Notes under the pieces: generated by a model
The model's database searches: none
What the model was told of the DNA's origin: nothing
What the model saw: the letters and a program-made list of their open reading frames with translations, nothing else
Program-made: the position numbers and the translations under genes
NCBI GenBank assembly: GCA_031082185.1
Contig: JAVHLI010000001.1
Coordinates: 199,127-263,126 of the forward strand
Length of the DNA: 64,000 bases
Reading direction: 5' to 3'
Source: a bacterium
GTDB lineage: Bacteria; Sysuimicrobiota; Sysuimicrobiia; Sysuimicrobiales; Humicultoraceae
Shown: one piece after another, positions 1,056 to 58,297 of the stretch
Position numbering within the stretch: position 1 is the first letter of the stretch
How the letters are laid out: the number at the start of each line of letters is the position of its first letter

Positions 1056-1430
1056 GTGCCGCCTCGCCTGCTGCTCGATGTTCACTTCTCACGAGCCGTC
1101 GCCTACGCGCTCCGTTCCCGAGGATTTGACGCCGTGGCTGCTCAGGACGATGCCTTGCTCCGCAGCCGCAGCGACGAGCACCTGCTGGCAGCGGCTGCCG
1201 AGCAACGGCGCGCGGTGGTCACGTACAACATCAACGATTTCGTCACCTTGGCGCGCGCGTGGGTTATGGGTGAACGCGGGCACTTTGGGATTGTACTGGT
1301 GCACCCTGGAACGATCGCCCAGGCAGACATCGGAGGGCAGGCACGAGCCCTTGAGCACCTCCTGGCGTCACTTCCCACAGAGGACGCGCTCAGGGGCGTG
1401 ACGGTGTTTCTCGGGAAGCCCGATCTCTAG
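1056..1430 (+). CDS. DUF5615 (PIN-like) putative toxin
   Basis: MPPRLLLDVHFSRAVAYALRSRGFDAV...VVTYNINDFVTLA... Immediately follows the DUF433 gene with a 1-nt gap (stop/start coupling). Confidence 0.55.
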   Translation: MPPRLLLDVHFSRAVAYALRSRGFDAVAAQDDALLRSRSDEHLLAAAAEQRRAVVTYNINDFVTLARAWVMGERGHFGIVLVHPGTIAQADIGGQARALEHLLASLPTEDALRGVTVFLGKPDL

Positions 1431-4307: not shown

Positions 4308-4392
4308 CCGGCGAAATCCGGCGGCATTGGGGTAGCCCTGAGGAGTAGTGCTTCTCTCCGGTGCGCCACTTGCTCACCACCTCCCGCCGGGT

Positions 4393-4803
4393 CTAAGCGA
4401 AGCTGCGCAGACCGAGGCGCAGGACGCGGCGTCACTCGGCGTGGTCGGAGACCAGAAAGGTCGCCGAGCGCCTGAGGCGGAGGAAGCGCGCCGCGGGCAC
4501 CGCCATGAACCTGGCGAGGAGGCGCTCGACCGCCGACTCGCTGATGCGCAGCGCGTCCATGAGCTGGTTGACAATGTGGACCACGTCGTACATGGCGTAC
4601 CCAAGGCTCTTGGCCGGGATGGCGCGGGGGTCGGCAAGGTTGATCGAGTCTATGGGATGGCGGGAAACCGGTACCGCGAAGCGGGTCTCCGTGACGATCT
4701 CCTCGTCGTCGTAGGCCAGGACCGTGGTGTGCCGGGTGCGCACGGTGTCGCCGTTGACCCCGTCCAGATCTATGCTGTAGGATTCATACAGGGTCATGTG
4801 CAC
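4393..4803 (-). pseudogene. partial, internally deleted copy of the YjbQ-like fusion gene at 8988-10358
   Basis: DNA at 4393-4790 matches 8990-9660, with two internal deletions bounded by short direct repeats (e.g. gggggtcggc). Translation matches the C-terminal 50 aa (..AIPAKSLGYAMYDVVHIVNQLMDALRISESAVERLLARFMAVPAARFLRL.RSATFLVSDHAE) and the ..MDLDGVNGDT.RTRHTTVLAYDDEE.. block. Confidence 0.7.
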
Positions 4804-4830: not shown

Positions 4831-5079
4831 ATGACAAAGCGCAGGGTGAACTTGACTCTGCCCGAGAACTTGTGGATCAATCTGCGCGCGCGCGTTCCCG
4901 AGCGCAAGATCAGCGAGTACGTCGCCGAGGCGACGGCGGCGCGGCTGGCCGAAGAGGAGAGGGCCATCCTAAGAGAGCGTCTCAAGGACCAGTACGTGGC
5001 GCGGGCGGCTCAAGACCACAAACTGGCCGAAGAGTTCTTCGCCGCCGAGCAGGAGACCACTGATCGGATCGGAGCCTGA
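4831..5079 (+). CDS. RHH antitoxin (MazE/CopG-like)
   Basis: MTKRRVNLTLPENLWINLRARVPERKISEYVAEATAARLAEEERAILRERL... Start computed from the ORF track (Met162 of ORF 4348-5079). The upstream part of that ORF is antisense to the pseudogene. Confidence 0.6.
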   Translation: MTKRRVNLTLPENLWINLRARVPERKISEYVAEATAARLAEEERAILRERLKDQYVARAAQDHKLAEEFFAAEQETTDRIGA

Positions 5080-5086
5080 AAGACCT

Positions 5087-5584
5087 GTGCGCACCTACAG
5101 GCGCGGCGACGTCTGGCTGGCCAACCTGGATCCGGTCATCGGCTCGGAGCAAGGAAAGACTCGCCCGGTTGTCATTGTCCAAAACGACGTGGCGAACGAG
5201 TACAGCCCGGCGGTCATCGTTGCGGCCGTGACCACTGTGCTCGGCCCCAAGGAATATCCCACGGAGGTGCGGGTGCGGGCCCCAGAGGGCGGATTGAAGA
5301 GGGATTCTGCGATCCTGCTCAACCAGATTCGCACCATTGACCGATTCGCGCGGCAAGCCCCGGACTTCAGGCCGGGGAAGGATAGCGCGAGGTGTGGTAC
5401 AATGTTCATGCGGCCAACGCCGCCTACCGCAGGGCATGCGGGAAGTAACGCCGGGGAGATACGAGCAGCCGATCAGGCACTCGGCCCAGGAACCCACCGA
5501 AGCGATCCCGCCAGGGATTGCCGTAGGAATCCCCCGGCTTCAGGTGGGGGAGGATGTCAAAAGCGGCGCATGGTCGAGCGCTGA
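5087..5584 (+). CDS. mazF: MazF/PemK-family toxin carrying a ~170-bp 3' insertion (C-terminally extended ORF)
   Basis: RRGDVWLANLDPVIGSEQGKTRPVVIVQNDVANEYSPAVIVAAVTTVLG...LLNQIRTIDRFAR. The ORF then reads through inserted DNA to 5584 instead of stopping at the TAG that follows DRFAR in the remnant at 45093. Confidence 0.65.
   Translation: MRTYRRGDVWLANLDPVIGSEQGKTRPVVIVQNDVANEYSPAVIVAAVTTVLGPKEYPTEVRVRAPEGGLKRDSAILLNQIRTIDRFARQAPDFRPGKDSARCGTMFMRPTPPTAGHAGSNAGEIRAADQALGPGTHRSDPARDCRRNPPASGGGGCQKRRMVER
5354..5523. repeat. ~170-bp insertion / repeat unit inside mazF 3' end (hairpin CCCCGGACTTCAGGCCGGGG + extended -10 TGgTACAAT)
   Basis: Flanks tgaccgattcgcgcgg | taggaatcccccggcttcaggtgggggaggatgtcaa are contiguous at 45093-45145 but separated by 170 bp here. 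The insert's 5' end mimics the hairpin that follows it. Confidence 0.55.
5395..5403 (+). promoter_or_regulatory. extended -10 element TGgTACAAT inside the insertion
   Basis: Sequence gtgTGgTACAATgttc, the same motif class as at 609-618. Confidence 0.3.
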
Positions 5585-5740
5585 GGAACTCTCGGCCTAG
5601 AGACGATGAAGAGGCTGGACGAAGTCCTGAAGATCAGCCTGGCGCTGGTACCGATCTGAGGGATTCCGGTCGCGCGCCGGCAGAGCGAGGAGATCCTCCG
5701 CGAGATCTTCGTCCGGAAGAGGACTTCCCCGTGAAGCGCA

Positions 5741-6128: not shown

Positions 6129-6320
6129 TCACGCCGCCGGGTGGTCGAGCGGCCGATCGGCCTGGCCCTGGCGCCTGAGCAGCAGCGCGCCCAGCCCCAT
6201 GGTGACGGCGAGGATCCAGGCCGTGGACGCGACGACCCCGGCCATCCGCTGCTGCACCCTCCTCACGCTGAAGAAGAGGAAGTTCACCGTCATCGGCAGC
6301 GTGCTCGCGGCCAGCAACAA
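6129..6320 (-). pseudogene. fragment of a Wzx/MOP-flippase-like C-terminus (copy 1)
   Basis: MTVNFLFFSVRRVQQRMAGVV.ST. DNA block ctcctcacgctgaagaagaggaagttcaccgtcatcggcagc is identical at 6262-6303 and 7330-7371. Confidence 0.4.
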
Positions 6321-6511: not shown

Positions 6512-6877
6512 GTGCTACCCTCAGCGCGTGGGAAGCGCGAGACATGGGGTCTTCGCCGCACGGAGGTGAGCGGGCACCTGTCACATTTCGAAGGACCAAT
6601 TCGTTGGACCCGTCATGCCCAGCACGACCGCCTCCCTAGGCTTGTCGAAACGGGCAGGGTGCGTGATCTGGCAGATGTTGAGGAGATCCTGCGATCCCCT
6701 GAACGCATCGTGCAGGCGAAGATGGGGCGCCGAGAGGCCCAGCAGCGACGTGGCGGCGGCCTCCTGCGCATTGTCTTCGTGGAGGAGAAGGGTAGCCGTG
6801 TTATCATTACGATGAACTGGACGACAAAGGTCGATAGGTACTGGAAAGGGAGTGCCATAGATGAAGGTCACCTATGA
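6512..6877 (+). CDS. DUF4258-family putative toxin
   Basis: HAQHDRLPRLVETGRVRDLADVEEIL.....VVFVEEKGSRVIITM. Matches the DUF4258 H-A..R...R.I....V..vL.......VITvy pattern. Confidence 0.5.
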   Translation: MLPSARGKRETWGLRRTEVSGHLSHFEGPIRWTRHAQHDRLPRLVETGRVRDLADVEEILRSPERIVQAKMGRREAQQRRGGGLLRIVFVEEKGSRVIITMNWTTKVDRYWKGSAIDEGHL

Positions 6878-7091
6878 TCCGGAAGCGGATGTTCTGTACA
6901 TCCTCCTGCGCGAGGAGGCACGCGAGGCGGACACCGAGGAGATCCGTGGGGGGGTGACCGCAGCGTTCGACCAGCATGGACGCCTCATCTCGCTCGAGTA
7001 CATTGGCGCTGCAGCAGACGGCTTGGTCGTGGACGATACCATCAGGGTATCCGTGGTCAACTATCCCGGGCGTGCAAAGACGAGAGCGTAA
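6861..7091 (+). CDS. DUF2283-family protein (partner of DUF4258)
   Basis: MKVTYDPEADVLYILLREEA. Classic DUF2283 N-terminus. Overlaps the upstream gene by 17 nt. Confidence 0.55.
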   Translation: MKVTYDPEADVLYILLREEAREADTEEIRGGVTAAFDQHGRLISLEYIGAAADGLVVDDTIRVSVVNYPGRAKTRA

Positions 7092-7143: not shown

Positions 7144-7365
7144 CTAGAGCAGCCGGCGATCGAAGGCAAGACGGGCAAGCAGTACAAGCGCAACTGAACT
7201 TTGTGCCGCGAACCACCCCAGACCCGCCCCCAACAGCCCCATGCGCGGGAGGAGCAGCACGCTCAGCCCCAGTGTCACGACCAGGATACAGAGGGTGCTG
7301 CCCACGACCCCGGCCATCTTCTGCTGCACCCTCCTCACGCTGAAGAAGAGGAAGTTCACCGTCAT
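7144..7365 (-). pseudogene. fragment of a Wzx/MOP-flippase-like C-terminus (copy 2)
   Basis: MTVNFLFFSVRRVQQKMAGVVGSTLCILVVTLGL. Duplicate of the 6129-6320 fragment. Confidence 0.4.
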
Positions 7366-7430
7366 CGGCAGCGCTTGAATTGGGGTGACGCGCGCGGGCC
7401 GGTCCGGCCGCTACGGTCCGGCCGGCAGGG

Positions 7431-8987: not shown

Positions 8988-10358
8988 CTAAGTGAAGCTG
9001 CGCAGACCGAGGCGCAGGACGCGGCGTCGCTCGGCGCTTGCCGACCACTGGAGGAGGATCGGACTCTGGTAGCGCCCCTGGACGAGGGCCCCGCGCCCGG
9101 GCTCGGCGTGGTCGGAGACCAGAAAGGTCGCCGAGCGCTTGAGGCGGAGGAAGCGCGCCGCGGGCACCGCCATGAACCTGGCGAGGAGGCGCTCGACCGC
9201 CGACTCGCTGATGCGCAGCGCGTCCATGAGCTGGTTGACAATGTGGACCACGTCGTACATGGCGTACCCAAGGCTCTTGGCCGGGATGGCGCGGGGGTCG
9301 GCGAGGGCGCGCTTGCCGGCGCGCATCGCGAACTTGAGCGGGTCGCGCAGGACCTCGGCCAGGTCGTGCCGCATCAGGAGCGTCTCGTGCTCGTTGACCG
9401 TGAGCCCCGCGTTGTGCTCCTCAGGGTCGAGGGTGATGTCCACCCGCCCCTTGGCGACCCCGTGGCGGGCGACGAGATCCTCGATGAACGGGACCAGCCC
9501 GACCCGGGGGTCGGCGAGGTTGATCGAGTCGATGGGATGGCGGGAAACCGGTACCGCGAAGCGGGTCTCCGTGACGGTCTCCTCGTCGTCGTAGGCCAGG
9601 ACCGTGGTGTGCCGGGTGCGCGCGGTGTCGCCGTTGACCCCGTCCAGATCCATGAAGTAGACGGGCTCGCCGGGGCGGTTGATGTAGGTCACGCAGTTGA
9701 GCAGCCCGGAGCCGATGAAGGCGAGGTGGGAGTCGGCGTTCCTGGGCTCCACGCGGCGCTGCTCCTCGGAGAGTTCGGTGCGCAGGTCGAGTCGGTCGTG
9801 GCGGTAGTCGGCGTCGGGCGGGAACAGCGCCCGGAACGCCGCGATGAACGGGTCGAGTTGCTCGCGGCGGTGCTGCAGTCGCCTCGACAGGCTCTGCTCC
9901 AGGTAGCCCGCGGTGGTGTGATAGGAGCAGTACAGGGCCCGGCGGTAGGGCGTGAGGGCATCGCCGTGCGCCTGGCGCACCCTCTCGGTGACGTCGATGG
10001 CGTCGTAGCGAGTGCGCGGCCGCAGCGTGAGGTCGAGCTGGAGCGGGGCCGTGCGGCCCCGCCCACGCCGGCGGCGCACCTCACCGGTCTGACTCACCCC
10101 GACCTCCCCTCGGTCCCCGGCCTCGTGCCCCGGCCAAGCCCCCGCGGCGGCCGGAAGGCGCCCCGGGAGTGGATGTCGCGACTCGAGCGCAGCTTTCCCC
10201 CGCGTGCAAACGATAGACGGAGTCGGGCCGAAAGTCAAAGGCGTGCGGCCGAGGCGATGCTGGCAGTACTGCGCGAGGATGGCGACCCACTGGCACCGGA
10301 AGACGCTACCGCTGGCTATTCGGGGCAGATTCGCCTGAGACTCCCAAGGTCGCTGCAC
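8988..10358 (-). CDS. hypothetical fusion protein: YjbQ/UPF0047-like domain + unknown C-terminal (HTH-like) domain. True start probably internal.
   Basis: PLQLDLTLRPRTRYDAIDVTERV..YCSYHTTAGYL...NADSHLAFIGSGLL..YFMDLDGVNGDTARTRHTTVL echoes YjbQ motifs (HTTAG, D..SH....G..L). The C-terminal ~200 aa (..LRISESAVERLLARFM..) is unassigned. The N-terminal ~90 codons of the ORF abut the IS481 end and are probably non-coding. Confidence 0.4.
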   Translation of the reverse strand: MQRPWESQANLPRIASGSVFRCQWVAILAQYCQHRLGRTPLTFGPTPSIVCTRGKAALESRHPLPGRLPAAAGAWPGHEAGDRGEVGVSQTGEVRRRRGRGRTAPLQLDLTLRPRTRYDAIDVTERVRQAHGDALTPYRRALYCSYHTTAGYLEQSLSRRLQHRREQLDPFIAAFRALFPPDADYRHDRLDLRTELSEEQRRVEPRNADSHLAFIGSGLLNCVTYINRPGEPVYFMDLDGVNGDTARTRHTTVLAYDDEETVTETRFAVPVSRHPIDSINLADPRVGLVPFIEDLVARHGVAKGRVDITLDPEEHNAGLTVNEHETLLMRHDLAEVLRDPLKFAMRAGKRALADPRAIPAKSLGYAMYDVVHIVNQLMDALRISESAVERLLARFMAVPAARFLRLKRSATFLVSDHAEPGRGALVQGRYQSPILLQWSASAERRRVLRLGLRSFT

Positions 10359-10399: not shown

Positions 10400-11798
10400 T
10401 GTACTGGTCCAGTAGATGCGAAACACTTTCCTCCTCTCATTGGCCGTGGTGTTGGGTTTGCCACTGGGTTAGGTACTCCTGCGGGGTCCGGTAGCCCAGA
10501 GCTTGGTGGGGCCGGACGGTGTTGTAGGTCCGCTCCCATTCTTGGAGCAGGGCGTTGTGCTCCGCCAGCGGGTCTGGCACTTCTACCAGGTCATAAAACT
10601 CTTCCTGGTGCGTCCGCTGCGCCCGCTCCACGTGCCCGTTCAGCTTCGGGCTCCGCGGCGGCAACACGAACAGCCGAATCCCCATCCGCTCGCAGGCCGC
10701 CTCGAACACCGCCTTGAACTCACTGCCCCCGTCGATCTGAATCGCCCGCACCGGGAACCCAAACCTGGGAAACGCCTCCCGGAGCACCCGCTCCGCTGCC
10801 CGGCTGCTCCCTCGATCATGCGCCGCGACCACGCCCTTACGGCTCACCACATCGCAAGCGCTGAAGTGCACCCGCCTCAGCCCCGGCCGCACCTCTACCG
10901 GCGTCGTATCGATCTGCACCAGATCCCCGGGGGAGTGCACCACGTACTCCCAGGGCTTCCGCTGCGCGTAGCGACGCCTCTGGCGCCTCCGGTGACGCTT
11001 GGCCTGCGCCGCCCGCACCACCGCCGGTTCCCGCAGCTGCCCCAACGCCCGCAAGCGTCTCAGCGTCCGTCCCACCGTCGAGGCTGAGACCTTCCATCCC
11101 TCCCGAGCCAGCAGCACCGCCAGCTTTACCTTCCCCCACCGCGGATATGCCTCCCGCAGCGCCCGGATCCGCCCCACCAGCAGGACCGAGGTCTGCGGCT
11201 GCCTCACACGCCGGGGCCGCCGCGTGCGACGATCATCCTCCAAACTGCTCAGCCGCCGGGGATTGTAGCGCTTCCTCCACCGGTAGAACGTCGCCGAGCT
11301 GATCCCAAAGCGCCGGCAGGTCAGCCGCGCGTTGGGCCCATGCGCCTCGTAGAACTCCATCCACCGCAACCGCTGCCGCGCCTCGCGGGTCAGCGGCGCC
11401 GACATCCGAATCCGTAACCTCTGGGGAAGCAGGCTCTGCTCGATCATCATGCGGCCAGTATAGCCGCCTCCAAGGGGCCGGAAGCCCCCCTTCAACCGGT
11501 ACGGCATCCTCAGTCAGGGTGTTTCGGATCTATCTGAACCAGGGCATGCGCTCCGCGCGGACAGAGCGAAGGGTTAGCGTGCTGCCGCAGCACCTCGGCT
11601 CGGCACGCACGGCCTCCTTGACCACACGCCCACGGATGCGCGGGTCGACCGCCCGGCAGCGCTCGAGTTGGGATGGGTGAATCTGCAGCCTGATCTCCTG
11701 AAGCCGCCACCACATCGTAGCCGAGTTTCTGGAGCGCGTCCGCGACCGCGCGTTCACCTCCAGGAAGGAAAGTGTTTCGTATCTACTGGACCAGTACA
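10400..11798 (-). mobile_element. IS481-family insertion sequence (~1.4 kb) with 33-bp terminal inverted repeats
   Basis: Left inverted repeat at 10400-10432 is tgtactggtccagtagatgcgaaacactttcct. The right end 11766-11798 is its reverse complement with 1 mismatch. TG...CA termini. Single DDE transposase ORF inside. Confidence 0.8.
10437..11507 (-). CDS. IS481-family DDE transposase (HTH + rve integrase core)
   Basis: ..FGISSATFYRWRKRY.. HTH. Integrase-core motifs DLVQIDTTP...HFSACDVVSRKGV...IQIDGGSEF...NGHVER...RPHQALGYRTP. Confidence 0.85.
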   Translation of the reverse strand: MPYRLKGGFRPLGGGYTGRMMIEQSLLPQRLRIRMSAPLTREARQRLRWMEFYEAHGPNARLTCRRFGISSATFYRWRKRYNPRRLSSLEDDRRTRRPRRVRQPQTSVLLVGRIRALREAYPRWGKVKLAVLLAREGWKVSASTVGRTLRRLRALGQLREPAVVRAAQAKRHRRRQRRRYAQRKPWEYVVHSPGDLVQIDTTPVEVRPGLRRVHFSACDVVSRKGVVAAHDRGSSRAAERVLREAFPRFGFPVRAIQIDGGSEFKAVFEAACERMGIRLFVLPPRSPKLNGHVERAQRTHQEEFYDLVEVPDPLAEHNALLQEWERTYNTVRPHQALGYRTPQEYLTQWQTQHHGQ

Positions 11799-12651: not shown

Positions 12652-12885
12652 CTATAGAACTCCCTTCGTAGCTCGTCCTCCGCAATGAACCGGCACGCTT
12701 CCCGTGGTGGTTACCCGTCGCAGCTTTACATGACTGCCGCGCTGGGAGTGAACCATGAAGCCAAACCTGGCCAGGATAGCGACGACCTGGTCGCCCGATA
12801 GCCGCCTAAGCCTGGGCAAAGTCAGCGGTGTCCTCACCCTCCAGATGCAGGGTGACAGCCTCCTGAAGGTTCGCAAGGGTTTCAT
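12652..12885 (-). CDS. hicA: HicA-like toxin, possibly degenerate (aberrant C-terminus; true start probably internal TTG/CTG)
   Basis: ..LSGDQVVAILARFGFMVHSQRGSHVKLRR...VPVH fits the HicA G-S-H pattern. Overlaps the hicB end. Confidence 0.4.
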   Translation of the reverse strand: MKPLRTFRRLSPCIWRVRTPLTLPRLRRLSGDQVVAILARFGFMVHSQRGSHVKLRRVTTTGSVPVHCGGRATKGVL

Positions 12886-12988
12886 CCAGCGTTTTCCCCT
12901 GAGTCACCACGGCAATCTCCACGCACTCGGCTACATAGTAGTGCTCGCCTTTTCGCACTACAGCCTTCACATTCTGTTGGAGCCTCAT
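12806..12988 (-). CDS. hicB: HicB-like antitoxin (UPF0150 fold)
   Basis: MRLQQNVKAVVRKGEHYYVAECVEIAVVTQGKTLDETLANLQEAVTLHLE. Start from Met31 of ORF 12806-13078. Confidence 0.55.
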   Translation of the reverse strand: MRLQQNVKAVVRKGEHYYVAECVEIAVVTQGKTLDETLANLQEAVTLHLEGEDTADFAQA

Positions 12989-13902: not shown

Positions 13903-14742
13903 TCAGCGTTCCGGTGTCTCCACGTCGAGATCCGCAGGGTAGTCCTGCTCGCCCCGATACTCGATGTTCTTGGAGACAATAGCCCTGAGGACCCGCTTGT
14001 CGTATCCGGCATGCTCCAGGGATCGCAACAGCGACAACGTGTCCTTAGGGAGGCACTTCCCAAAGAACCCACGGCTGTTGCCCCACGAGGCGGTGTGCAT
14101 GGGACCCACGCGGGGGTCCAGCGTCCACAGATCCCGGGTTTCCCAGTACGGCACGCCCCATGCGGCGCACGCCTCCCGCATCTCGTTGGCAAACATGACT
14201 TTCCACGCGATGAACTCGTTCTCGAACGCCTTCACCGCCTCAGCGACGCTGGCCGACGTCACGCGGTACTGCTTCATGGGACCGGCTATGGGGGCATACA
14301 GATCAATCACGCGCTCGCAGTCTGCCGCGTCGCCACCGAAGATGTAGAAGGGGCATTCGATCTCGTCCCGCATGAAGCCGTACGGTACCCAGTAGTGCGG
14401 CTCGCCCACGTACTCGGGGGAGAACACTATCGACTTACCCGTCTCGGCCTTGAGCCTATCGGTTGTCCCGACGGGGATGGTCGAGCGGATCAGGATCGTG
14501 TCGGCCCCGATCCATCCGACGGCCTCTTCAGCAATTGATGTATCGCACGAGCCGTCCGGGCGCATGGGCGTGGGCACGCAGACCGCAACCATAGCACACT
14601 CGTTGATGTCGTTCCGGCTGCTGTGCCCCTTCGGTGGGTCGTAGATGGTCACCTCATACCGACGCCCGAAGAACGCCTCCATCGCCTGCCCGACGCGCCC
14701 ATACCCTACGATGCCGATGCGAGCCATGCTGACCCGAGACAC
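13903..14742 (-). CDS. short UDP-glucose/GDP-mannose dehydrogenase-family protein, copy 2 (native polysaccharide-operon context)
   Basis: 279 aa. Same motifs as 2467-3291 (GIVGYGRVGQA, VCVPTP, GKCLPKD). Downstream of the PglC-like transferase gene. Confidence 0.5.
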   Translation of the reverse strand: MSRVSMARIGIVGYGRVGQAMEAFFGRRYEVTIYDPPKGHSSRNDINECAMVAVCVPTPMRPDGSCDTSIAEEAVGWIGADTILIRSTIPVGTTDRLKAETGKSIVFSPEYVGEPHYWVPYGFMRDEIECPFYIFGGDAADCERVIDLYAPIAGPMKQYRVTSASVAEAVKAFENEFIAWKVMFANEMREACAAWGVPYWETRDLWTLDPRVGPMHTASWGNSRGFFGKCLPKDTLSLLRSLEHAGYDKRVLRAIVSKNIEYRGEQDYPADLDVETPER

Positions 14743-44229: not shown

Positions 44230-44706
44230 ATGTCGTACGACCGGATCCGAACCGGCCATGCGCAGCCAGGCGGGAGGGGTGGAATAATGGCCACGGTCCA
44301 AAAGAGCCTACGGATTCCCGAGGACATCGCCAAGGCTATTGAGGAGTCGGCGCAGTCCACCGGACGAGACTTCTCGGCGGTCGCGAACGAACTCCTCGCC
44401 GAAGTGATCAAGATGCGCCGCTGCCCGGGGATCCTCTTTGCGGACGGTCCTACCGGCCGAAGGGCCCGTATCGCTGGCACAGGCCTCGACGTCTGGGAGG
44501 CCATCGCCACGTACAAGAGCCTCAAGAACGATCCCGAGCGTCTCCGCCACGCCTACCACTGGCTCTCGGAGATACAACTGCGGGCTGCGCTTGGTTACTA
44601 CGTCGCCTATCCGGAAGAGATCGAAGCCCAGATCCGACGGAACGAAGCCTGGACACAGGAGCGGCTCGCGCAGCGCTATCCCTCCTTGGCGGTGCGCGGC
44701 TCCTGA
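44230..44706 (+). CDS. DUF433-domain protein (third copy). Probable start ATG at 44287.
   Basis: [22 protein letters not shown]..(RHH-like)..[29 protein letters not shown]....[15 protein letters not shown]. Confidence 0.55.
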
Positions 44707-44750
44707 AGTACTACCTGGACGAAGACCTGAGCCCCACGGTCGCCGAGCTC

Positions 44751-45050
44751 TTGCGCGCGCGAGGCGTCGATGCCGTGAGCGCACACGAAGTCGGCGCGCA
44801 AGGCCTCTCGGATCTGGAGCAGCTCGACCGGGCGGCCCGCGAAGGGCGCTGCCTCGTCACACGTAACCGGGATGACTTCATCGCGCTCACGCTGCGCTTC
44901 TTCGCCGACGGGCGCCCTCATCCGGGGGTCCTGATCGTACCCCGCACGCTCCCGGGCGACCGCTTTCAACTCCTCGCCGATGTCCTCGGCCAGCATGCGG
45001 CGCGCCACCCCGCAGGCCTCCCCCCGTACACTCTCCATTTCCTCTCCTGA
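44751..45050 (+). CDS. DUF5615 (PIN-like) putative toxin. Frame is open upstream to ~44702 (..[17 protein letters not shown]..), so the real start is probably earlier.
   Basis: ..[46 protein letters not shown].. Confidence 0.5.
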
Positions 45051-45092: not shown

Positions 45093-45145
45093 AGTATGAC
45101 CGATTCGCGCGGTAGGAATCCCCCGGCTTCAGGTGGGGGAGGATG
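45093..45145 (+). repeat. 53-bp remnant of a mazF 3' end (..DRFAR-TAG) plus hairpin CCCCCGGCTTCAGGTGGGGG
   Basis: Identical to the sequence flanking the 170-bp insertion at 5338-5353 + 5524-5560. Confidence 0.6.
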
Positions 45146-45413
45146 TCAACACGGATACCCTGACGGTATCGTCCACGACCAAGCCGTCTGCTGCAGCGCC
45201 AATGTACTCGAGCGAGATGAGGCGTCCATGCTGGTCGAACGCTGCGGTCACCCCCTCCCGGATCTCCTCGGTGTCCGCTTCGCGTGCCTCCTCACGCAGG
45301 AGCATGTACAGAACATCCGCAGCGCGCCACCGATCACTCCACGACCGTCCCTGAGCGCCTTCTGCCGCACCCGTCCACCCGGTCCGGCTTGACGATTCGT
45401 AACATCGACCCAC
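45129..45413 (-). pseudogene. truncated copy of the DUF2283 gene (cf. 6861-7091)
   Basis: ..ADVLYMLLREEAREADTEEIREGVTAAFDQHGRLISLEYIGAAADGLVVDDTVRVSV.. Lacks the MKVTYDPE start. Confidence 0.55.
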
Positions 45414-45622
45414 AAACCTACCAGCGTCTGAAAGAGCAGGCCCGGCGCCACCGCCGGTCCATCACGCAGGAAGCTGCGGTCATCATCGAGGAAGCCGTGG
45501 CGAGGGCCCAGGACCCTCAGGAGTTCTGGCGGCATGCCCGCCGAGTGCGGGAGGCTGTTCAGGCCAGGTACGGAGCGTTTCCCGACAGCGCCGAGCTCAT
45601 CCGAGAGGATCGCCGGCGGTGA
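45284..45622 (+). CDS. vapB: VapB/FitA-like antitoxin (probable start near 45385)
   Basis: ..LTIRNIDPQTYQRLKEQARRHRRSITQEAAVIIEEAV.. N-terminal extension of the ORF is doubtful. Confidence 0.5.
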   Translation: MPPHAGACTEHPQRATDHSTTVPERLLPHPSTRSGLTIRNIDPQTYQRLKEQARRHRRSITQEAAVIIEEAVARAQDPQEFWRHARRVREAVQARYGAFPDSAELIREDRRR

Positions 45623-46068
45623 CCGCTGTCCCCGCGGTGGTAGTGGACACAAGCGTCGCGGTTAAGTGGTTCTTCGACGAGCCGTACTCTCGCGAGGCCC
45701 TGCACCTGCTCGAGGCGTTCGAGCAGGGTCGGCTCAGGCCCCTGGCCCCGGACCTGATCTACGCCGAGTTCGCGAACGCGGTATGGAAGCGGGTCTCCGC
45801 GGCCCACGTGAGGCCTGAGGATGGGGAGGCGGTGATCGCGGCCTTCCTCGATCTCCCGCTGGAGGTCGTGCCCAGCCCCCTCGTGCTCCTACCGGCCTAT
45901 CGCCTGGCCCTTGAGCACAGGCAGAGCATCTACGACGCCCTGTTTCTTGCGTTGAGCCTTCAGGCTGGCGCTGATCTCGTCACGGCGGATAGGGCCTTCT
46001 ATGAGAGCATCAGCGCCGGCTTCCCTCAGGTCAGGTGGGTAGGCGACGGCGTCCGAGGAGGTGCGTGA
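45619..46068 (+). CDS. vapC: PIN-domain toxin VapC
   Basis: VVDTSVAVKWFFDE.....APDLIYAEFANAV......YDALFLALS......VTAD. 4-nt overlap with the antitoxin. Confidence 0.7.
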   Translation: MTAVPAVVVDTSVAVKWFFDEPYSREALHLLEAFEQGRLRPLAPDLIYAEFANAVWKRVSAAHVRPEDGEAVIAAFLDLPLEVVPSPLVLLPAYRLALEHRQSIYDALFLALSLQAGADLVTADRAFYESISAGFPQVRWVGDGVRGGA

Positions 46069-46108
46069 CGGCGATCGGTCCGCGCCCATGCGCGTCCGGT
46101 CCCTGCTG

Positions 46109-58113: not shown

Positions 58114-58297
58114 GGTTAGGCCGTTTCGCAGCGGATGCGCCAACCTCCTTCCGGATTCCGGGGCTTGCCAACGGAGGACGCACGCAGTATCCTCGAATCA
58201 ACTGAATACGGATCACACCTCCGAACGGGCAAACCCGGAGCAATCCGGGGACGCAAAGCCGCAGGGCCACGGCAGTGGCCGGCTGGGTTGCCGAAGA

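Follow-up and report, generated by a model that had tools for sequence, protein, structure and literature searches.

The mazEF locus and its interruption

A mazEF toxin-antitoxin locus is found near the left end of a 64,000-nucleotide stretch of contig JAVHLI010000001.1 (assembly GCA_031082185.1), derived from a bacterium of the Humicultoraceae. The whole stretch is hereafter called the window, and all features described at this locus are on its forward strand. An intact mazE-like gene encoding an antitoxin of 82 amino acids (aa) at 4831-5079 is followed by a mazF toxin gene split in two. The 5' part (5087-5341), recognised by its match to the Pfam PemK_toxin domain and by its identity to related alleles, comprises codons 1-85 and ends with QIRTID; the 3' part (5561-5659), recognised by translation, comprises codons 86-117. 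The 219 bp found in between (5342-5560) are almost certainly an insertion of a PATE (palindrome-associated transposable element), a non-autonomous derivative of insertion sequences (IS) of the IS200/IS605 group. Taken as a whole, the data very probably mean that a PATE has split mazF, that it keeps an omega-RNA region, and that a 49-bp repeat found at 45 kb is a core-deleted relic of the same kind.

The boundaries of the insert were set by comparison with empty alleles. An exact-sequence look-up of the antitoxin retrieved three independent metagenome contigs (L121, L122 and L123), all encoding an identical MazE immediately 5' of an intact, 117-aa MazF. In blastn alignments these contigs are 99.1% identical to the window up to position 5341, and the alignment restarts at 5561; the insert therefore corresponds to 5342-5560. 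The empty site reads ...CAGATTCGCACCATTGAC|AAGCGGCGCATGG..., that is ATTGAC|AAGCGG, and has no hairpin. The occupied site reads ATTGAC|element|AAGCGG, and no target duplication is found. The element thus lies 3' of TTGAC (5337-5341), a pentanucleotide present also in the empty alleles, which marks the left cleavage site (core TGAC) and plays the part of target, or transposon-adjacent motif (TAM). An earlier note on this DNA, drawn from the sequence alone, had described a 170-bp insert placed at the 3' end of mazF. It is true that 170 bp separate the two flanks shared with the 45-kb locus, but the insert is longer, includes the hairpin taken as downstream sequence, so that both hairpins are inside it, and follows codon 85 of 117.

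The mazF frame resumes 3' of position 5560 (AAG CGG CGC ATG...) and reads KRRMVER*GTLGLETMKRLDEVLKISLALVPI*, the normal C-terminus of MazF with one in-frame TGA. In the empty alleles this codon (5582-5584) is TGG (Trp), and the TGA is a secondary nonsense change in an already dead gene. The PemK_toxin match covers only positions 1-83 of 109 in the interrupted open reading frame (ORF), and extends to 1-109 of 109 (112 bits) once the element is excised in silico by joining 5087-5341 to 5561-5659. As judged from the sequence, the insertion inactivated mazF, which is here a pseudogene next to an intact antitoxin gene. The ORF at 5087-5584 does run into the element to give a product of 165 aa, as the earlier note had remarked; for annotation, this extended MazF is an artefact of transposon insertion. 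Exact-protein look-ups of the interrupted 165-aa MazF and of a neighbouring 115-aa toxin gave no match.

Two further differences among the alleles flank the locus. About 450 bp just 5' of mazE (4322-4770) contain a copy, 96-99% identical, of a portion of a 456-aa ORF located at 8988-10358 (repeats D2, D3 and D6; shared with 8988-9660). This stretch is not found in L121 and L122, in which 78 bp separate the equivalents of 4321 and 4771, and L123 starts with it; the copy is a polymorphic duplication or insertion. On the other side, 48 bp 3' of mazF (5668-5715) are skipped in the alignments of L121 and L122, and represent small-repeat or indel variation.

The ends of the element

The element lacks terminal inverted repeats (TIRs), and has instead two imperfect subterminal palindromes, located 16 nt from the left tip and 10 nt from the right tip, in the same, direct orientation. 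The left terminal 16 nt (5342-5357), formed by CGATTCGCGCGG and the tetranucleotide CAAG (5354-5357), align to the left-end consensus C.GGTGCGCGGCAAG of related IS and PATEs. They are followed by the hairpin CCCCGG-ACTTCAGG-CCGGGG (5358-5377; DNA fold -13.9 kcal/mol) and by a conserved AAGGATAGCGCG at 5378-5389. The right end (5527-5560), defined by the repeat and by homologous right ends, consists of the tetranucleotide GAAT (5527-5530), a hairpin (5531-5550), and AGGATGTCAA, which includes the cleavage motif TCAA (5557-5560). The left hairpin is a diverged copy of the right one, as already noticed in the earlier note. In the terms of the IS200/IS605 group, the guide and cleavage tetranucleotides are CAAG and TGAC at the left, GAAT and TCAA at the right. 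The sole inverted match is TTGAC...GTCAA, the left arm of which is the flanking target motif and lies outside of the element.

A degenerate pattern spanning both hairpins retrieved more than 120 genomic loci from many phyla, which fall into two classes. Members of the right-end class are organized as ...GTAGGAAT-hairpin-AGGATGTCAA|flank (also written as ...GCCGTAGGAAT-hairpin-AGGATGTCAA), and their flanks are unrelated. Members of the left-end class are organized as TAM|~12 nt-4-nt guide-hairpin-(A)GGATAGCG. ORFs terminating just 5' of such right ends encode TnpB proteins (Pfam OrfB_IS605, Cas12f1-like_TNB and HTH_OrfB_IS605), and genes adjoining such left ends encode Y1_Tnp, IS200-type transposases. 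In Klebsiella plasmids the match overlaps the 3' end of a gene listed in RefSeq as RNA-guided endonuclease TnpB family protein. Full-length elements sharing these ends encode OrfB_IS605/TnpB, with or without Y1_Tnp; one of them, of 1.8 kb (L043), has tnpA, tnpB, the TAM TTGAC, the guide CAAG and the same left and right ends. Left guides and cleavage motifs covary across subfamilies (CAAG-TGAC, GAAA-TCAT, AAAG-TTAC, GAAG-TCAC), GAAT is paired with TCAA (GTCAA) in 42 right ends, and TGAC precedes all 11 interpretable left ends of related PATEs. These pairs suggest that guides and cleavage sites would face each other in the geometry described for the group.

The left hairpin of IS608 is located about 19 nt from the tip, against 16 nt in the window element. 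IS608 of Helicobacter pylori, which serves as mechanistic model for the IS200/IS605 group, has the left guide AAAG with the cleavage site TTAC, and the right guide GAAT with TCAA (PMC5934647). The right pair is identical to that of the window element, and in both cases 10 nt separate the right hairpin from the tip, the left hairpin is further in, and insertion occurs without duplication 3' of a short motif which pairs with the left guide. The two elements differ at the left pair, which is CAAG and TGAC (TTGAC) in the window, and in that the window element encodes neither tnpA nor tnpB.

The element also resembles PATEs described in Haloquadratum walsbyi (PMC3119063) and Geobacillus stearothermophilus (PMC10055086). 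It is similarly small and protein-less, lacks TIRs and target duplication, has near-terminal palindromes at both ends resembling those of tnpB-bearing IS, has an interior derived from the tnpB 3' end and omega-RNA region, and is accompanied by a terminal-only derivative of about 50 bp. It differs in belonging to another sequence lineage, in residing in a GC-rich bacterial host, and in having its own conserved -10 box directly 5' of the RNA region. It is another PATE-type element, a known kind, and the finding is real but ordinary, and opens no new question.

Other kinds of sequence were considered. A classical miniature inverted-repeat transposable element (MITE), with TIRs and target duplication and moved by a DDE enzyme through cut-and-paste, is ruled out because true TIRs and target duplication are both missing. 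Readings of the region as a terminator, a CRISPR repeat or a group I/II intron were dropped after the empty site and the IS605 ends had been established. The earlier note had suggested a small, MITE-like element targeting hairpins, or else a unit of tandem duplication. The former idea holds in spirit, but the hairpins belong to the ends of the element itself and the target is TGAC, here within TTGAC. The latter is excluded, since this architecture is known from about 20 unrelated contexts and the ends correspond to those of IS200/IS605.

The interior of the element

Much of the interior is shared with larger elements. The tract 5436-5560 is matched, in blastn searches, by sequences close to the right ends in other loci, among them the tnpB 3' ends of L043 and L078 and a protein-less element in L077, and a residual C-terminal TnpB frame (AGHA...GTHRSD) is still visible in the read-through frame of the window copy. 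The region going from the 3' end of tnpB through the right end is known to encode the omega RNA of TnpB.

A covariance model, R1, was built from an alignment of 18 PATEs, for which RNAalifold predicts a structure with multiple stems and compensatory changes. The omega-RNA-like scaffold region of the element is 5410-5560. R1 scores 145 bits on the window copy (5398-5560) and 85-105 bits, over the full model length, on the tnpB-3'/right-end region of full-length elements. In a wider R1 alignment 92.6% of the cells are paired, versus 41-46% when partners are slid by 1-3 columns; pairing is inflated here by the fitting of the alignment to the model. Compensatory (double) changes are found in 38 of 46 pairs, and the observed values were reached in none of 500 shuffles. 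It is likely, with good though not full confidence, that the interior of the element is an omega-RNA homologue.

The two known copies are the only ones detected in the window by R1, as a further, weak match (12825-12935, 12.7 bits) falls in HicB-like coding sequence and is noise. A search of the element region against Rfam gave nothing at the gathering threshold, and at E<=10 only sub-threshold matches to HgcC and sot0042, two families of sense-overlapping or small RNAs associated with the 3' ends of archaeal IS1341-type tnpB genes. HgcC has an E value of 0.037 on the window and of 0.006 on the Klebsiella tnpB 3' end, where sot0042 also has 0.006. These are the only Rfam families touching the right-end region; all scores are far under the gathering thresholds, and the element belongs to neither family.

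An extended -10-like box, TGgTACAAT, pointed out in the earlier note, is present at 5395-5403 and could be the promoter of a guide-RNA transcript. In the 18 PATEs of alignment A3 the hexamer is invariably TATAAT or a one-base variant of it, with T1 and A2 never changed. The TATAAT box is not found at the same position in full-length relatives, and is thus a feature of the miniature lineage.

The motif TTGAT of ISDra2 is one base from the TTGAC of the window element. As in the ISDra2 system, in which TnpB works with an omega RNA (also called reRNA; PMC8612924), a structured RNA would be encoded at the tnpB 3' end plus right end, its guide would be the flank immediately past the right end, and the TAM is the target motif of the transposon. 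The two systems differ because the PATE has no TnpB in cis, and its RNA would need the TnpB of another element; moreover, the PATE transcript would start at the PATE-specific -10 box, and would not derive from processing of tnpB mRNA.

The second copy at 45 kb

The repeat shared by mazF and the 45-kb locus, which was the starting point of the earlier note, is real. A 35-nt block, GGAATCCCCCGGCTTCAGGTGGGGGAGGATGTCAA, occurs exactly twice in the window, at 5526-5560 and 45115-45149, and is never expected in shuffled sequences. Immediately 5' of it, the 45-kb locus has tgaccgattcgcgcgg-ta (45097-45114; the 16 nt of tgaccgattcgcgcgg proper are 45097-45112); at the mazF locus tgaccgattcgcgcgg is found at 5338-5353, and the 170 bp at 5354-5523 intervene before the shared right part. 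The 53 bp do form one uninterrupted stretch at 45 kb as had been noted, but their position is 45097-45149, about 4 nt from the one proposed. This sequence results from the target motif ATGAC (45096-45100, forward strand), as read from the sequence, and a terminal-only PATE of 49 bp (45101-45149, forward strand; hairpin at 45120-45139). The latter is a fusion of the outermost 12 nt of the left end with the terminal 37 nt of the right end, and is 100% identical to 5342-5353 plus 5524-5560. R1 recognises only its right-end part.

At this locus there is no homology to mazF beyond the 12 nt of the element itself and TGAC; hence the 45-kb sequence is not an empty site. Homology to DUF2283 genes, as judged by comparison with an intact paralogue (6861-7091) and with the related contigs L147 and L148, begins exactly at 45150, right after TCAA, and defines a gene fragment on the reverse strand (45150-45320) abutting the small copy. 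The intact paralogue and the relatives read TTGAC at the point corresponding to the 49-bp copy. The repeat is transposon debris at a point of rearrangement, and not a remnant of mazF. The 49-bp copy may have lost its core in place, or may stem from an event between two copies, either a deletion or a recombination; it lacks the left hairpin and is probably immobile. Core deletions are common among IS605-type elements, and in H. walsbyi they produced terminal-only PATEs of 52 bp (PMC3119063). Differently from these PATEs, the junction in the 49-bp copy is just outside the palindromes, and not within a perfect repeat.

Additional observations were made on the surrounding genes. In L147 and L148, which were compared with 45150-46099, PIN and RHH genes adjoin an intact DUF2283 gene. 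The window has the block in two parts: the PIN and RHH genes with the 171-bp DUF2283 fragment are at 45 kb, the intact DUF2283 gene and its flanks are at 6.5-7.2 kb, and the terminal-only PATE is located exactly at the break. Within the ORF at 6512-6877, 103 bp (6726-6828) are missing from both L147 and L148, and the deletion is not a multiple of three there. Exact-protein look-ups of genes flanking the 45-kb copy (PIN, RHH, and DUF433 with two choices of start) gave no match; a look-up of DUF2283 retrieved the relatives used above. The gene 5' of the copy (44703-45050, forward strand) is DUF5615-like by eye only. A scan of the 40 codons with which its open frame begins (44343-44462) met no start codon, and ended well short of the conserved N-terminus at 44700; the first start given in the ORF listing is a TTG at 44751, past that N-terminus, and the gene may be a pseudogene.

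A dispersed lineage of miniature elements

A pattern derived from the interior region was used to scan metagenomes, and 23 loci were found. Nearly all are elements of about 290 bp inserted in unrelated flanks. The pattern missed the subtype of the window because of a one-base indel, and closer copies of the 219-bp variant are not among the 23 loci. In the layout common to family members, TGAC is followed by the left end, a second hairpin, TATAAT, about 190 nt of conserved sequence, and the right end. About 20 members with differing flanks are known from metagenomes and from a plasmid of Paenalcaligenes, on which the PATE is unannotated. The copies are on average 87% identical, and their hosts are from distant phyla, including a betaproteobacterial plasmid, a Kiritimatiellia metagenome-assembled genome and the GC-rich bacterium of the window. 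The window copy is a shorter, diverged member, which has no second left hairpin and is 18 nt shorter in one stem.

One feature alone is mildly unusual: this widely dispersed miniature lineage has its own conserved -10 box 5' of a structurally constrained guide-RNA region. PATEs have been reported to "often encode omega RNAs", which have to be used in trans (Meers et al., PMC10055086). It is conceivable, with chances somewhat short of even, that the lineage under study (TGAC|left end / TATAAT / ~190-nt RNA / right end) is a horizontally spreading, guide-RNA-only parasite of IS605 elements, little altered from one distant host to another, which has a promoter of its own in place of tnpB and a constrained omega RNA, and takes both TnpA and TnpB from other elements; in the window, its RNA would direct the cleavage of intact mazF alleles. 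Were this true, the new parts would be the dedicated promoter and the cross-phylum lineage, as the general idea is already in PMC10055086. If the RNA is expressed, these would be a case in nature of selfish elements that exchange guide RNAs and TnpB nucleases in trans, as the literature has already proposed.

Single-hairpin forms of the same end are found in other genomes (L021, L049 at 1755-1779, L116, L030 and L085). Some are perfect palindromes, organized as TTGACATCCT-hairpin-AGGATGTCAA, others are fusions of a left 5' part, a hairpin and a right 3' part, and they may be further terminal-only derivatives. In L144 a group I intron match (1148-1371, reverse strand; Rfam RF00028; its 45 bits fall short of the gathering score of 50) is located about 500 bp from a PATE copy, in a possibly IStron-like neighbourhood. 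In L142 a PATE left end (about 109-160) is fused to Nextera adaptor sequence (agatgtgtataagagacag), an assembly artefact in a public contig.

Proposed mobilisation and alternative explanations

The element retains, in its palindromes and guides, the requirements of a Y1 (HUH) TnpA, and could be mobilised by one encoded elsewhere, by single-strand "peel and paste", the top strand being excised and inserted as single-stranded DNA. The TnpA supplied in trans would read TGAC and TCAA through the guides CAAG and GAAT, and would have inserted the PATE 3' of TTGAC in mazF, at codon 85 of 117. Starting from the -10 box, a transcript some 150 nt long would cross the right end into the mazF flank and gain as guide the 16 nt AAGCGGCGCATGGTCG (5561-5576, forward strand), a role assigned on the model of TnpB and omega RNA. 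In the empty alleles L121-L123 the same 16 nt directly follow TTGAC. Vacant mazF alleles of this type, having TTGAC and then AAGCGGCGCATGGTCG, could be cut by a TnpB supplied in trans, and this would favour retention of the element. The 49-bp copy would result from the loss of the core and the fusion of the ends. GC skew was too noisy to read an orientation bias relative to the lagging-strand template.

Several observations weigh against parts of this picture. No tnpA or tnpB gene was detected in the 64 kb by tblastn searches with the Y1 TnpA and TnpB of relatives, the short tnpB-tail remnant in the element apart, so that both enzymes would have to come from elsewhere. A sigma-70 promoter scan found no -35/-10 pair and no acceptable -35, only the extended -10, and transcription can therefore only be inferred; the outward promoter imagined in the earlier note survives to this extent, with a -10 hexamer conserved across the family. 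Folded as a single sequence, the RNA shows no unusual stability (z = -1.6), the pairing values are inflated as said above, and the window copy, short and diverged, could be decaying. At 45 kb the left flank of the small copy is unrelated to DUF2283; this is a synteny break with no clean empty site in comparison to L147 and L148. The junction GCGCGG|TAGGAAT features about 1 nt of microhomology only, which does not fit a clean repeat-mediated deletion. We give an even chance to the window copy being actually transcribed and used in trans.

The most serious alternative is that the element is an IS605-derived PATE but an inert fossil, its interior and TATAAT box being conserved through recent spread, or through requirements of TnpA at the DNA level, with no functional guide RNA. 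The 87% mean identity of the PATEs could indeed reflect recent ancestry, the missing -35 speaks in the same sense, and the secondary nonsense mutation in mazF indicates that the insertion is not very recent. On the other hand, the stems stay paired through compensatory changes, both among PATEs and in distant homologues linked to tnpB, every member has retained the -10 box within an element of about 62-65% G+C, and TnpA reportedly requires only subterminal hairpins and guides. An inert fossil is thus rather unlikely, yet to be taken into account. Far less probable is decay in place, according to which a full-length, tnpB-bearing IS605/IS1341 element entered mazF and later lost its interior, so that the 219 bp would never have moved in miniature form. 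A tnpB 3' end is clearly the source of the interior, and core deletions of this sort are frequent, as mentioned. However, the same left end, -10 box, RNA and right end, with the same junction and a PATE-specific GGAAGTAACGCC variant, recur in about 20 other contexts and phyla; the deletion must hence be older than the mazF insertion, and the miniature form itself spreads.

Two more explanations are hardly tenable. The GTAG found 5' of a short GC-rich palindrome (ccGTAGgaat) is reminiscent of repetitive extragenic palindromic (REP) or REPIN repeats mobilised by a REP-associated tyrosine transposase (RAYT), and RAYTs are Y1 HUH enzymes too. Yet the hairpins are direct and not inverted, each of them aligns to the left or the right end of IS elements bearing tnpB or tnpA, the interior is tnpB-derived, the insertion is gene-disrupting and TAM-specific, and the window has no Y1 gene. 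No better founded is the model of the earlier note, in which a 170-bp, hairpin-targeting element (5354-5523) occupies the stop codon of mazF, and 45093-45145 is the empty-site allele of a second mazF. The 53 bp at 45 kb do encode ..DRFAR-stop in one frame. The true empty alleles, which encode intact MazF, lack all of 5342-5560, including the supposed downstream hairpin and the DRFAR codons; MazF resumes at 5561, and the 45-kb locus, devoid of mazF homology 5' of TGAC, abuts a DUF2283 fragment. What had been taken for an empty-site remnant is a second copy with its core deleted, in a different genic context.

Other features of the window

The first 15 kb of the window look like a rearranged island of toxin-antitoxin genes. 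A 356-aa ORF (10437-11507, reverse strand), resembling, by eye only, an IS transposase of the rve/integrase type, adjoins the 456-aa ORF, a fragment of which is duplicated at 4.4 kb. Further repeats are found at 2467-2766 and 13918-14217 (90%), and at 6166-6301 and 7238-7373 (83%). A c-di-GMP-I-GGC riboswitch aptamer (Rfam RF03167) is located at 58219-58296 on the forward strand, with a score of 60.2 bits, just over the gathering score of 59.

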